A program made the position numbers. From UHGV virus genome UHGV-0355397: a stretch of 16,014 bases of DNA. One strand, given 5' to 3'. The first letter of the stretch is position 1. Every line of letters begins with the position of its first letter. This DNA comes from a virus. Shown piece by piece: positions 3,001-9,000 of the stretch.

Positions 3001-6000
3001 GCGCAGAGAAATGATGCAGTGGTGGGCAGACTGGCTTGATGAGAAGGTGTGAAACGAATTATCATATCACATGAAGAATCGGTGACATTTCCGGATGCCT
3101 GTTTGCTCTAATTTTAACCATGCATTACCTCTAGTGTAATCATGCTAATTTTGAGATGAATGATAAATTTAGTGATCTACGTCACTCTGAAAACCCTACA
3201 AATAGATCTATGTTTACCAATATTATAGATTAGGGGGCCAGTCTAATCCTGATGAGGTTTTATTGTGATAAAAGTTGGAATTTCTACTATGCGGATTTTC
3301 GGTCCGATTGCTGTAATTTCGAGCCTGTTTAAGATTCTGTGTAAATGCCTTTTCTCAGAAGTGACCGTCCAGGCGGTCACCGAACTCGATAATAAAGCGG
3401 CTCATTGCCATTCGCCAGTCCTTCAACGGCATCGTCCATTTCTGGGACGCAGACTGGATTGCCAGCCACACCACTTTTTTCACCGAGTCGTCTGTCGGGA
3501 ACACTTTACGCTTTTTGATCGCATGGCGGATCACGCTGTTTAGCGACTCGATGGCATTCGTCGTATAGATCACTTTGCGGATGTCCGTTGGATAAGCGAA
3601 GAACGTGGCAAGATTCGGCCAGTTAGCCTGCCAGCTTCGGCTTATCTGAGGATAGCGACTGTCCCAGGCCGCAGCGAACGCTTCCAGTGCCTGCTGGCCT
3701 GCTTCTTCCGTGGGAGCCTGATAAATCGCTTTCAGGTCGTGAGTGACGGCTTTGTAGTCCTTCCATGACACGAAGCGCAGGCTGTTGCGCACCATATGCA
3801 CGATGCATAACTGGATGCAGGCCTTCGGATATACTGTGTTGATGGCATCCGGGAAGCCTTTCAGGCCATCCACACAGGCGATGAGGATATCGTTCAGACC
3901 GCGGTTTTTCAGTTCAGTCAGCACATTGAGCCAGAACTTCGCCCCTTCATTTTCGGCCAGCCACATACCCAGCAGTTCTTTCTGACCTTCGATATTGATG
4001 CCCAGTGCCAGGAACACCGATTTGTTGATGACGCGACTGTCCTGCCGAACTTTCAGGACGATACAGTCAAGATAAACAATGGGGTAAACAGCATCCAGTG
4101 GTCTGTTTTGCCATTCTACAACCTGCTCCATCACGGCATCGGTGACCTTTGATATCAGTGCCGGTGAAACATCTGCGTCATACAGTTCTTTGAACGCAGT
4201 AGCTATCTCACGGGTGGTCATCCCTTTGGCATACAACGAGAGGATCTGGTTATCCATCCCGGTAATACGGGTCTGATTTTTCTTTACCAGTTGTGGTTCG
4301 AAGGTACCGTCACGATCGCGCGGAGTACGCAGTTCCAGTGGACCGTCGCCTGTGATAACGGTCTTTGTGGAATAACCGTTGCGGGAGTTAGCTCCTGGTC
4401 TGGACTGATTTTTCTCATACCCAAGATGGTGTGTCATCTCTGCATTGAGAGCGGCTTCAACGCTGAGCTTTTTCAGCAGCCGATCAAACTGACTGAGGTC
4501 TTCAGGGGTTTTGAGGTTTTTGGCCAGTTCGTTAGCCAGAGCCTGTAACTGTTTTTCGTCCATAAATCAACCTTCATTTGATGCTGGATTGAACATATCA
4601 AAATCAGGCAATTACACAAATCTATGTACAGGCTCGTAATTTCTGGTTTTGCTATCTCTAGTGGGTTACTACCCATGCCTTCAAGCCTGTTCAGATATGC
4701 CATACTAACTGCAGATGTCATGGTTGTAGCATTCTGGATCCTTGATGAAATTAACAATTTTAAAAATAACAAAACCAAAAATTAGTTTATTAATTTAAAT
4801 GTGTGTTCTGTTAATTTGAGTGAAACAAATGAATAACAAGTATCTTTTTGCACAATATTTAAGAGGGTTGGCTGCACTATCTGTCATGTTTGCGCATTTC
4901 GGGACGTCTTTTTTCAATGCTAACCCAATGCTCTCATCTTTCGTTAATGTTCCGCAAGTTGAAGACCGTTCTTACCCATGGCTTGTACAATTAGTGCCGG
5001 TTGACTTTCCTGGATTTATGGCTGTATTCGGCGTTGCAATATTTTTCATGATCAGCGGATTTGTAATCCCGATGTCAATTGAAAGATATAGTTTTACCAC
5101 CTTCTTCTCTAAGCGTTTTTTCAGATTATTCCCTACTTACGCATTTGTTTTTACTCTTAACCTACTTGTTGCTGGCATAGGGTTTGCCATCTACCAAGGC
5201 AAAGGGGTTGAGTATGTTTATAATTCTACAGACATAATTGGCTCGTATCTCATTGGATTAAATACTTACATTTCTGGAACTAGATGGCTAGACCCTGTCG
5301 CATGGACTCTGGGTGTGGAGATATTATTTTATGTAGTAGCAGCTATCTATATGAATATCTCTTTCGCAATAAGAAAGGTTAAGGAAGTTAGTCTTTATGA
5401 TGTCATTATACTGAGCGCTATTCTTGATGTAGCGGCAATTAAACTTTCTAAATATTTTGATATAATCAGCAGCACATTCCCTTCCATAAATCTTGGCAGT
5501 GTCATTAAAGCTGTTTATCTGATTTCTTTCATGCTTCTTGGGACGACTTTCTTCCTTCATGCTAAAAAGAGAATTGGCTTACATGCACTAATTTACACCA
5601 TCCTTATCCAGTATTTTGGATTCGTTTATGTAAACATGCATATCCATCAAGCTGGCATGTATGTTGCAATAGTTCCTACTTTTAGCTGGTTTGCCATTAC
5701 TATACTGGCATTTGCTCTCTGCTACTCAATAAACGATAAAATTAAAGAGCACAAGTTCGCTGGATTTATGGCTGACATTAGCTACCCGCTGTATCTTTGC
5801 CACTCATATATTGGCTATTTCTTGATGGGGGTAATTATAAGCTTTGGCATCTTGCCAAGATCGCTTGTTGTTTTCATACCATTTCCAGTGGCTATCGGCG
5901 TTGCATACCTCATACACAAATACGTGGAAATGCCGACGCACAGAATGACTTTCTCAGGAATATTGAAACTCAAAAAGGCATAATTAAAGGGGCTTGCGCC

Positions 6001-9000
6001 CCTTTTTTAGTATCCAACAGTCTGAACTGCCCCTGACCCAGATGAAGATGATTGAAGTTCCATGGTGTAATAACCATTAAGTGGCTCACCTTCCCAATCA
6101 AGGTTAATGCGTAATACATGGCCATATTTGGTTGCATTTGACTGGGCGATAAACCCTCCAGGCTTATCTATATCTCTCTGTGGCATCCCAGAATATACCT
6201 GATTTGCAGTATATGCCTTATCAACAGCAGGAGCGCCAATAGAGGCGGTAATTTTAGGCCACGTTCCGGAGCTGTGCAGAACATCTACAGCATACCCGGT
6301 AAGCCCGGTTGATGTTCTCCTGATCAAACATTCAATATACCCACTCCCATGAGATCCGCCAATCGACTTGATAATCAGTTTTGCAGTACCGCAATCCCAT
6401 GGATTTAAAGTCTGATCCCAACATTCAGCCTTTAGGCCGCTAGGCATAGGAAAATCCACGCTGGTTAACACTGCCTCACCTGGCCATACTCCTCCCACAA
6501 CTATTGGACTCGGTATCCTGACACTCAATGTTTCTAAATATCCTCTTCCCCATCCATTATTTGTTTGTCTGGCAAGGTGCTCGTAAATTGGCCTTATTGT
6601 CAAAGCCTGAATAAACGCTGGCTTGGATGCTGACGCATCTGCTGCGTTATAAATACTGATAGTTTTCCATCCCCTACCAATCAGCGTACCAATACGCTTT
6701 TGCAAGGCATCAGAGTGATTATTAGATCCACGATTTCGTGCTACAGTAACAGTGCTCTGAATTGCGTTATAGTTTGTTTGCACAAAACTATTTTGCTCGG
6801 CGAAAGCATAGTATGAAACCCCTATAGAGGGAGGGACCTCCTGTGGTTCAGAGAAGCAAAATGACAAATTAGAGTCATCCAGCCAGCTACCAACAACATC
6901 AACTTCTGCTGCCTCTGCATCAAGATAGAAACTGTATGACGTTCTAACATATTTTCCAGCATCAAACCCACCAATGATGCCTTGAAGCGTATATGTCTCG
7001 TAACCAAATCCCATTGTTACATTGTCAAAAGCATCAAAAAAACCAATCTGATCGCTCTGTTTGTATGGCCATACCGTTATTTCTGTAGATACTGGTCTAT
7101 AAAACGGAAGCATTCCTCCGGCCATCATCATTGAACCAATTGCTTCAGCTATTCGTTGATATCCGACAGAGTTGAAGTGAATTGGATCTGATGCGATAGA
7201 ACCATATGGGATATTGTATGGTATTTCATTTGCTTCGATATATGCACAACCATATACATGAGCTAAATTTCTGATTTCCTGCCCCCAAATTTGGAACTGT
7301 TGAATATTACCATGCTGCTCATTACCACCTGCAACTGGCTGAAGAATAATAACCCCCATCCCCCAATCAATGAATCTACGAATGAACTTCTCCATATACG
7401 TTAAATACACGTCTATCGTGGTTGATGTAGAGTCATTTATCGCATACATAATAATTGCAACATCACAATTAGGATTATCCTGCCATGCTAAATATTCAAA
7501 TCCTTGTTGTGCTGTCTGCCCGGATACTGCTCTAGTGATACTTGTTACATTCCCACCGGTACAGATAGAAAGGTATCTTGCGAGCCTTTCTGGATAGGTT
7601 ACATTAGCACGACGCGTTAACCCTGTTCCGTTTGCATCTGTTGAGTTAGGATCCCAACCAAAAGTCTCACTATCTCCCTGACAAAGGATCGATAATCCAG
7701 ACTTTTTACGAAGATTGAAGTGAGCCTTGGTAAGAGCCTGAATATTTCTGTTTCTATAATCAGCGCTATCTGATGCCAAAGTAGCGTTGCCAAGATTTGT
7801 AATGTGCTCTTGAACAGTCTTCCCATCATCAGTTCCGATTAATAAAGATCCTCCTGATCCAGACAGTTCCTGTCGCAGTTGATCTGGATCATATTTAATT
7901 ACATTAGGGTAATAAAATTGCAAACCACCAACAGCATCATACACCGCCATCGAATGGCCTTTCACAGTAACAAACTTGGCAATCTGTCCGTTATATACAG
8001 GGTAACCAGCAGCGTTAATGATGATTGGTTGCGAAACAGGAACGTGAGAACCATCCTCATTATCCACATAAACCTGAATCTGGTTTTCAGGATTTACAGG
8101 GTCAGTGTCAATTTTACCGATATAAATTTTGCCATTGGCAACCGCTTTAAAAGAACGCGCCATAGTGAAAAGTTGCGAAGGCATCGATACGATCACATTG
8201 GCTGTAATGTCTGTCATTTAATTTGCTCCAGATACAAGGAATCGCCGCAGAGTGGCTACGGTTGGTGTTTGTTGCATACCGAAACGGTACGATTGTTGAT
8301 TTGTACAGTAGGTTTTACGATGCCATTCCACCCAACTGGTGAGGCATCAAGGATGTACAGCAAATACGACGAGGCGCAGTTTCACTTGAGACTTCCGCAT
8401 GAACTTCACGCGAAAATTAAGCAGCGTGCGAAGATGAATAACAGGTCGCTGAACTCAGAGATAATTGCAGCGATTGAAGAATCATTGGCTAAACAAAGCT
8501 CTGCATCCGGTTACATTGACGATGCAGAGCGTATGGCAGAACAACAATCCGATATGGTAAAGAAAATTGTCTTTGATACGTTCAGAGATTTATATAAAAA
8601 AGACAGCAACTAACCATCCGTGTCTTTCCGTTACTTCTGGTTATCATCACTGTTCATCCAGTACATGATGCCTAGCCTTGATATGGTTTTCTTATCTGAT
8701 TCTGGAAGTGAGTTGTAAAACGAGCGCCAAGCAGAAGAGCGTCTTACAGTTGTATCAACGATGCTTTCTGGTGCTTGTTTTACTGCCAGCCTTGCTGCTT
8801 TCTGGAATTCTGGTGAGCTAATTAGCTTTTCTGCAGATTCAATTGATTCAGCGCCGCCCATCGCCCTGATTTTGCTGGCGACTTTTGCCCCAATTTCTGA
8901 CCCAGCAACAGCACCTACTGCACTGAACGGTCCTGACACAGTTGAACCAACCGCAGTGCCAATGCGTTGGGCATGGTTAGCAACAAATTCATTTGCCACA

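Follow-up and report, generated by a model that had tools for sequence, protein, structure and literature searches.

Organization of the locus

The window analyzed here (the whole stretch of 16,014 nucleotides, from the virus genome UHGV-0355397) comes from the excised form of a temperate P22-like coliphage, of which it represents the late-right and attachment end. It holds two convergent genes, one for a family-3 acyltransferase (AT3) and the other for a tailspike with an SGNH esterase domain, and ahead of the acyltransferase gene lie the two parts of orf65, a small open reading frame (ORF) split by an insertion sequence (IS). With slightly better than even confidence, we regard these genes as one module in which receptor recognition and lysogenic conversion are both built on a single acyl mark of the surface polysaccharide. 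The features on which the argument turns are the following (aa, amino acids).

4829-5983, plus strand: AT3-only O-acyltransferase, 384 aa (PF01757, PHROG 3333)
5986-6005, no strand: shared hairpin terminator AAAGGGGCTTGCGCCCCTTT, GC-rich, filling the 23-bp gap between the two genes (terminator scan and sequence)
6007-8217, minus strand: tailspike gene, 736 aa (Pfam Head_binding and Lipase_GDSL_2)
6007-7107, minus strand: C-terminal beta-rich domains of the tailspike, aa 371-736 (alignment with B2 gp48, Moo19 gp82 and SFP21A gp09)
7108-7770, minus strand: SGNH esterase domain of the tailspike, aa ~150-370 (PF13472 and PF00657)
7879-8217, minus strand: head-binding (adaptor) domain of the tailspike, P22-type, aa 1-113 (PF09008, E = 1e-63, 213 bits)

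The two convergent genes have 23 bp between their stop codons, and terminators are annotated at the equivalent place in phages g341c and Sf6. From the integrase side to the tailspike, the order and strands (attP-int-oac-terminator-tailspike) are those of Sf6, apart from the IS and orf65. The G+C content of the acyltransferase gene (0.38) and of the receptor-binding domain of the tailspike (0.43) is lower than that of the virion genes (0.50). The original prediction, made by reading the DNA without database searches, had placed a family-3 acyltransferase at 4829-5983 and, facing it, an SGNH/GDSL tailspike at 6007-8217. Coordinates, strand and convergent layout all hold (PF01757, E = 2.2e-23; PF13472, 43.1 bits), so that its account of the locus was right for these two genes; it had missed orf65 and the IS that splits it.

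The tailspike

The protein is a P22-like tailspike: its head-binding domain is 90-94% identical to those of the Escherichia coli P22-like phages CUS-3, HK620 and N7, and its gene lies beside the ejection genes of a P22-type virion module. Beyond that domain, Lipase_GDSL_2 (PF13472) matched aa 181-355 (E = 9e-11, with 43.1 bits against a gathering cut-off of 32.9) and Lipase_GDSL (PF00657) scored 24.0 bits (gathering cut-off 23.6); the Pfam E-values for the acyltransferase and tailspike domains are far beyond chance. The SGNH blocks were located and their codons verified: block I is G181-D182-S183 (7669-7677), block II is G233 (7519-7521), block III is N261-D262 (N261 at 7435-7437) and block V is D344-x-x-H347 (7186-7188 and 7177-7179). 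All four, including the Ser-Asp-His triad and the oxyanion residues, are invariant across 22 and 29 diverse homologues.

In the AlphaFold2 model, the predicted local distance difference test score (pLDDT) was above 85 over aa 150-370 and mostly above 80 over aa 371-736. The SGNH alpha/beta/alpha fold is supported by Foldseek matches to Axe2, CEX, TAP and other SGNH esterases (E from 1e-7 to 1e-5); acetyl-xylan and acetyl-mannan esterases were also matched, ranking after a weak match to G7C gp63.1. Over aa ~100-725 the tailspike is homologous to three proteins of solved structure, B2 gp48 (9d84), SFP21A gp09 (9lna) and Moo19 gp82 (9d80/9d81). Identity to them is 31-35%, the phmmer E-values against the three are 9e-96 (B2 gp48), 2.1e-87 and 4.5e-83 (Moo19 gp82), and the template modelling (TM) scores given by Foldseek range from 0.7 to 0.86 (9d84, 9d81, 9lna). 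Two of the checks proposed with the original prediction were thereby run, one on the SGNH domain with its Ser-Asp-His triad, the other on the predicted structure: domain and triad are both present, the triad being invariant, and the fold is of the SGNH type, so the tailspike reading still stands.

The B2 gp48/gp49 and Moo19 gp82 tailspikes hydrolyse p-nitrophenyl acetate, and phages B2 and Moo19 fail on a host without oacD-dependent O-acetylation (PMC11654681). The tailspikes of B2, Moo19 and SFP21A have the same SGNH blocks as that of the window, and their whole receptor-binding region is homologous to it. Judged by these relatives, the window protein would be an esterase of proven type, most likely deacetylating its sugar receptor. 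The three phages differ from the window in having other N-terminal adaptors and no conversion genes; B2 and Moo19 are Schitoviridae (N4-like). Related fibres in SH3, Dev2 and GW1 bear a T7-type N-terminal adaptor, and we take SFP21A to belong with the phages having such fibres. The receptor-binding family of the window tailspike has been shuffled widely, as a module, among adaptors of the P22 head-binding, Tail_spike_N, T7-fibre and P2-collar types.

The precedent originally invoked for an esterase tailspike was G7C gp63.1, an SGNH enzyme which deacetylates the O-antigen without cutting it and whose activity is essential for infection (PMC10743462). It survives as a remote fold match (4qnl; Foldseek E = 9e-15, TMq 0.41), with 11% identity, and G7C is a lytic N4-like phage; the closer relatives are B2, Moo19 and SFP21A. 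As a candidate for the closest relative gp63.1 was rejected, being absent from the phmmer and profile matches up to E = 1.

The acyltransferase

The Pfam profile Acyl_transf_3 (PF01757) matched the acyltransferase with E = 2.2e-23 and 83.3 bits (cut-off 31) over profile positions 5-325 of 326, and PHROG 3333, 'O-acetyltransferase', did so with E = 5e-37. The start is the ATG at 4829, as in all homologues; the ORF lister opens the frame at a GTG at 4820. In an alignment including Sf6 Oac and g341c gp15, three motifs are invariant or nearly so: R12-x10-H23, F72-F73-x-I75-S76-G77 and R96-x-x-R99. PMC9558356 lists R/K-X10-H and RXXR among the motifs common to AT3 proteins; FFxISG is taken from conservation in the alignment and not from a paper. 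The gene is intact, with every AT3 family motif present, and membership in PF01757 predicts a polytopic membrane protein of ~10 helices.

The acyltransferase had been assigned to the class of Sf6 Oac. The AT3 family and the synteny bear this out; a close relationship does not exist, identity to Sf6 Oac in the alignment being 20%. Homologues were found in Yersinia prophage (85%), Cronobacter prophage (70-84%) and another E. coli prophage (59%), and relatives with 46% identity are chromosomal genes beside WavE in polysaccharide clusters. The enzyme belongs to an AT3 subfamily other than that of Sf6 Oac.

Comparison with known systems

In the Sf6 Oac and BTP1 OafB modules, as in the window, the AT3 gene lies between int and the tailspike gene, converges on the latter and shares a terminator with it. 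The tailspikes of Sf6 and BTP1 are chain-cutting endorhamnosidases, unlike that of the window, and Sf6 Oac, with 333 aa, is the distant relative mentioned above. In modules of this type, O-acetylation blocks the phage's own tailspike (PMC9558356).

A nearer likeness in layout is offered by g341c (FJ000341, Lederbergvirus), a phage of Salmonella group E1. Its tailspike has a head-binding and an SGNH domain, is 41% identical to that of the window over aa 1-601 and, as in the window, converges via a terminator on an annotated O-polysaccharide acetyltransferase of the AT3 family, followed by int. The acetyltransferase is a 640-aa AT3-SGNH fusion, ~25% identical in its AT3 part, unlike the AT3-only protein of the window; a gtrA-like gene separates it from int, and orf65 is missing. 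It is 90% identical to acetylases of other-group Salmonella phages, e.g. SPC32H and SPN1S. The deposited g341c tailspike ORF (L002 6001-8379) is extended at the C terminus by a hydrophobic stretch of about 87 aa; 18 near-identical IMG/VR prophage copies (ORF end at 8115) lack it, and either a frameshift introduced by sequencing or a true fusion may account for it. A literature search found no paper analysing the g341c gene pair.

Phage c341 is presumably the clear-plaque form of g341. The substrate of its deacetylase, in what Iwashita and Kanegasaki are said to have found in 1976, is the acetyl on galactose (Gal) of group E1. Virion-borne deacetylation of the O-antigen by c341 was published in 1976, going by its citation in PMC5380687, and WbaK, a chromosomal AT3, is the source of 6-O-acetyl-Gal in Salmonella group E1 (PMC9558356). 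By analogy, a host mark made by WbaK, its removal by c341 and an SGNH tailspike converging in g341c on a different acetyltransferase would form a Salmonella parallel to the window. The view that the pairing was new to P22-like phages has to be given up: g341c has the same layout, and the deacetylation by c341 dates back to 1976.

A cassette in E. coli, Yersinia and Cronobacter

Two E. coli isolates of human origin from Ecuador, nearly identical to each other, have an argW (tRNA-Arg) prophage in which both genes are present at 99.3% identity. The closest other tailspikes (74-81% identity) and the closest other acyltransferases (70-85%) are both from Yersinia enterocolitica and Cronobacter dublinensis. 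The loci compared were L001 for E. coli, L003-6 and L016 for Y. enterocolitica, and L007-9 and L017 for C. dublinensis. In all of them the receptor-binding domain (76-88%) converges on the same AT3 (67-98%), with orf65 (55-63%); in the Yersinia and Cronobacter loci the gap between the convergent tailspike and acyltransferase genes is 23-26 bp in every case.

One Cronobacter locus has a siphovirus-type tail module with a Tail_spike_N adaptor. Its DNA similarity to the window extends from the acyltransferase start to tailspike codon ~148, and the acyltransferases of this locus and of the Cronobacter P22-like prophage share 98% identity. An edge of the exchanged segment can be placed near tailspike aa 148, and the receptor-binding domain, the AT3 and orf65 are a cassette that moves between genera and between two tail adaptors. 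Correlated divergence of tailspike and AT3 across all paired loci was considered and rejected, the Spearman coefficient between receptor-binding-domain identity and AT3 identity being 0.08; co-inheritance is limited to the close group, and the distant pairs are independent assemblies.

In Y. enterocolitica (L003-L006 and L016) the cassette sits in a gutted prophage, of which an integrase, a xis-like gene, dam and a gp16 fragment are left; the tailspike, the acyltransferase and the small ORF are still intact in many assemblies of it.

orf65 and the insertion sequence

The part of the window upstream of the acyltransferase gene comprises three features.

3265-3320, plus strand: orf65 5' fragment, codons 1 to about 19 (tblastn of intact orf65)
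3321-4635, minus strand: IS of the IS256/Mutator family (transposase at 3355-4563, minus strand; Pfam Transposase_mut, E = 1e-119)
4636-4785, plus strand: orf65 3' fragment, codons 17-65 (tblastn, 98% identity to L001 orf65 aa 17-65)

In the tblastn comparison, aa 1-21 of the intact E. coli orf65 (L001 8956-9153) matched window positions 3265-3327 (translation VIKVGISTMRIFGPIAVIS). With its 65 codons and two hydrophobic segments, orf65 would code for a putative membrane protein, and it ends 44 bp before the acyltransferase start. Pfam and PHROGs searches with it found no family. Next to their AT3 genes, the loci of Yersinia and Cronobacter and the second one of E. coli have homologues of 64-65 aa, which are 55-63% identical as proteins though the DNA barely aligns. 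An ORF of this type always accompanies this AT3 subfamily.

The IS is intact, has perfect terminal inverted repeats (GAGCCTGT) and lies between the two copies of an 8-bp target duplication, GTAATTTC (3313-3320 and 4636-4643). It interrupts orf65 at codon ~17-19, 192 bp upstream of the acyltransferase start. The E. coli prophage L001, 99.4% identical in other respects, lacks it. A scan for sigma-70-like promoters upstream of oac and orf65 gave no plus-strand matches. By splitting orf65, the insertion may inactivate, weaken or deregulate the conversion module in the window.

Frequency of the pairing

To see how general the pairing is, tailspikes from IMG/VR and from the Yersinia, Cronobacter and E. 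coli loci were clustered at 90% identity. A convergent AT3 gene was found downstream in 11 of the 28 informative SGNH clusters. Among P22-like tailspikes, the proportion was 5/6 for SGNH clusters against 5/35 for non-SGNH ones (Fisher p = 0.002; about six-fold), and 3/4 against 5/35 after merging by lineage (p = 0.02). The AT3 partners are of unrelated subfamilies (~25% identity) and include AT3-SGNH fusions; the pairing has therefore been assembled repeatedly. It is enriched but not obligatory.

These figures bear on the simplest alternative. Between int and the tailspike gene is where P22-like phages typically carry O-antigen-modifying genes; this interval could be a generic moron slot, the AT3 serving general purposes (exclusion of other phages, serum or immune evasion) unlinked to the esterase tailspike. 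Sf6, with the same synteny around an endorhamnosidase tailspike, speaks for this, and so do the five non-SGNH clusters with an AT3 gene, the 90% identity of the g341c-type acetylase to those of other-group phages and the occurrence of nearly the same tailspike with a 59%-identical AT3. Set against it are the six-fold enrichment, the recurrence of the pairing with unrelated AT3 subfamilies and the joint move of domain, AT3 and orf65 into a different Cronobacter tail type, with edges at aa ~148 and at the AT3 start. We judge the generic slot unlikely, though not negligible, as an explanation for the pair in the window.

Two other loci have further GDSL genes: in L014 (7262-9837) the SGNH tailspike is followed by a free-standing 227-aa GDSL protein and an AT3-SGNH fusion, and in L012 (7547-8269) by GDSL gene fragments only. 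A 350-aa ORF downstream of the L010 tailspike was considered as a divergent AT3 and rejected, since it looks GtrC-like.

A candidate receptor glycan

The lysogen 23CRST047 carries, between the colanic-acid genes and gnd, a glycan cluster of the ATP-binding cassette (ABC)-transporter type whose DNA is 74% identical to the O92 family. The cluster is present in 7 of 5426 complete genomes, six of the seven copies being at least 99% identical, and it ends with genes for a 707-aa protein and a 340-aa AT3 (WP_071783532); the latter has no BLAST similarity to the prophage acyltransferase. In strain MLI104K2 the O92-family cluster is fragmented. The model of the 707-aa protein (pLDDT 88.6) has a fold like those of the two-domain polymerising glycosyltransferases PmHS2, LARGE1, K4CP and WbbM, and the protein thus resembles a dual-GT-A glycosyltransferase polymerase.

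This polymerase has 25 homologues in 5.8 billion proteins. Among those at close range (62-66%), the only ones with a name belong to Y. enterocolitica and C. dublinensis, where the next gene in each case codes for an orthologous AT3 (60-67%). Those complete E. coli genomes that have the phage cassette have the polymerase-plus-AT3 module as well. The cassette and the host polymerase-plus-acetylase module therefore share a narrow taxonomic range; this is a correlation, as expected if the glycan is the substrate of the tailspike. In Y. enterocolitica the polymerase (protein cluster P0181/P0203) has many truncated variants, of 183-662 aa, beside the 706-aa form, which points to a candidate receptor glycan that is often inactivated or phase-variable. 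In C. dublinensis CP101591 (L163 9001-12236) the polymerase and AT3 stand alone between pncB and pepN, outside any ABC-transporter cluster.

The prophage AT3 might also act on another envelope polymer (enterobacterial common antigen, capsule, peptidoglycan or another glycan) that has nothing to do with the tailspike receptor. AT3 proteins do acylate many substrates (PMC9558356), and nothing in the sequence fixes the acceptor. We nevertheless hold this to be very unlikely, given that the 46%-identical relatives lie in chromosomal polysaccharide clusters beside WavE, that the cassette is restricted to species sharing one glycan polymerase and that the gene occupies the classical position for O-antigen conversion.

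The second, unrelated AT3 of the lysogen also bears on a reading in which writing and erasing concern the same site, i.e. the prophage AT3 would install the very acyl group that the tailspike removes, whether for release of progeny from debris or for display of a receptor for the lineage. The opposing activities are indeed encoded side by side and co-inherited. However, a receptor mark made only after lysogeny would leave naive hosts without receptor, and hence not infectable, so that this model is unlikely; moreover, the glycan cluster of the lysogen already has a separate AT3 able to supply the mark, and in all characterised conversion systems (Sf6, BTP1, D3) the lysogen becomes a worse receptor (PMC9558356, PMC13123978). 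Of all the readings weighed here we give it the least credence.

Proposed mechanism

The logic put forward with the original prediction, an acylated receptor combined with exclusion through acylation of another site, is the one which best fits this context, in which the lysogen has a second, unrelated AT3. On the strength of the comparisons above, we think it somewhat probable that the esterase tailspike uses an O-acetyl group made by the host as its receptor and that the prophage acylates another site and so excludes superinfection. The virion would bind by its tailspike to a host polysaccharide O-acetylated by the host itself, most likely the ABC-transporter-dependent glycan of the dual-glycosyltransferase polymerase, acetylated by the adjacent host AT3. 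The SGNH domain (Ser183, Asp344, His347) would then strip acetyl groups and leave the chain uncut, and by this deacetylation the virion could make its way to the outer membrane; G7C gp63.1 has been shown to act in this manner, and the same is implied for B2 and Moo19. Once lysogeny is established, the prophage AT3 would acylate the same glycan elsewhere, at another hydroxyl or on another sugar, perhaps with participation of the 65-aa membrane protein, and the tailspikes of incoming sibling phages would no longer bind or process the glycan. The receptor-binding domain and the conversion genes would be inherited as a cassette because both activities must fit the same glycan.

Several points weigh against this mechanism. 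What serves as receptor, which position is acylated and whether exclusion follows are, for this phage, matters of inference. In the argW prophages L167-169 of E. coli, a 98.5%-identical tailspike goes with an AT3 that is inverted and 59% identical, so the acyltransferase is not tightly co-adapted to it. The IS insertion shows that the module is dispensable for the phage genome of the window. In the survey, 17 of the 28 informative SGNH clusters are without a nearby AT3, several of them on T7-type fibre adaptors; the P22-like SGNH lineage L010/L018 has a GtrC-like membrane protein instead; AT3 genes are also found beside tailspikes that are not esterases (in Sf6 and in 14% of the background set); and the sample is small, with lineages that are only partly independent. 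Lastly, the co-distribution with the host polymerase is at the level of species only, bar one E. coli clone.

The same L167-169 loci also have a small ORF 55% identical to orf65 and, in two of the three, an IS3-family element between the tailspike and acyltransferase genes.

A broader extension of the proposed mechanism is possible but rather doubtful: in temperate phages, receptor-binding proteins of the deacetylase type could as a rule be joined to acyltransferase conversion genes in portable write/erase cassettes, each tuned to one acetylated glycan, with the 65-aa protein as a third component (e.g. an inhibitor of the host AT3), so that conversion would relocate the acetyl mark. For the window, the glycan would be what the dual-GT polymerase and AT3 of rare E. 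coli, Y. enterocolitica and C. dublinensis produce. Small inhibitors are encoded by phages D3 and epsilon15, and they are the model for this idea about orf65.

Both kinds of component, the acetylation-based logic of exclusion and the layout, in the deposited g341c sequence, are already known. What is new is the evidence that the cassette moves between genera and between tail types, together with the statistical association, the small ORF and the candidate receptor glycan. Small as they are, the acetyl groups of O-antigens and capsules determine the host range of phages and the serotype. If co-inherited cassettes of this kind are real, prophage content could predict which acetylated glycan a strain displays, and there would be an explanation for receptor modules passing between E. 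coli, Yersinia and Cronobacter. Tailspike, host AT3, prophage AT3 and orf65 would together make a simple genetic system for the study of non-depolymerising tailspikes and of exclusion by lysogens, as well as the first functional handle on a rare, O92-related glycan cluster of E. coli.

The P22-like context

The genes of the window are P22-like in context: the order is early-left genes, attP core, integrase, IS, acyltransferase, tailspike, a Mnt/Arc-like repressor gene and ejection proteins (gp16-like with an SLT domain, gp20 and gp7), to the right of which lie DUF2824, an Sf6-type needle and gp10. Two features belong to the attachment region.

about 1722-1736, plus strand: attP core (matches the 3' end of the tRNA-Arg gene argW in the lysogen)
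1862-3052, plus strand: tyrosine integrase gene (Pfam Phage_integrase, Arm-DNA-bind_3 and Phage_int_M)

Window positions 1722-3320 align with the E. coli prophage L001 (7394-9011) at 96.5%, the alignment beginning within the tRNA-Arg gene. A GenBank search for near-identical phages gave a DNA-level match confined to the head-binding part of the tailspike. The ejection protein in the gp16 position (8631-11399) has 922 aa, with an N-terminal SLT lytic transglycosylase domain, and is mosaic relative to the 613-aa gp16 of the copy in the E. coli lysogen.

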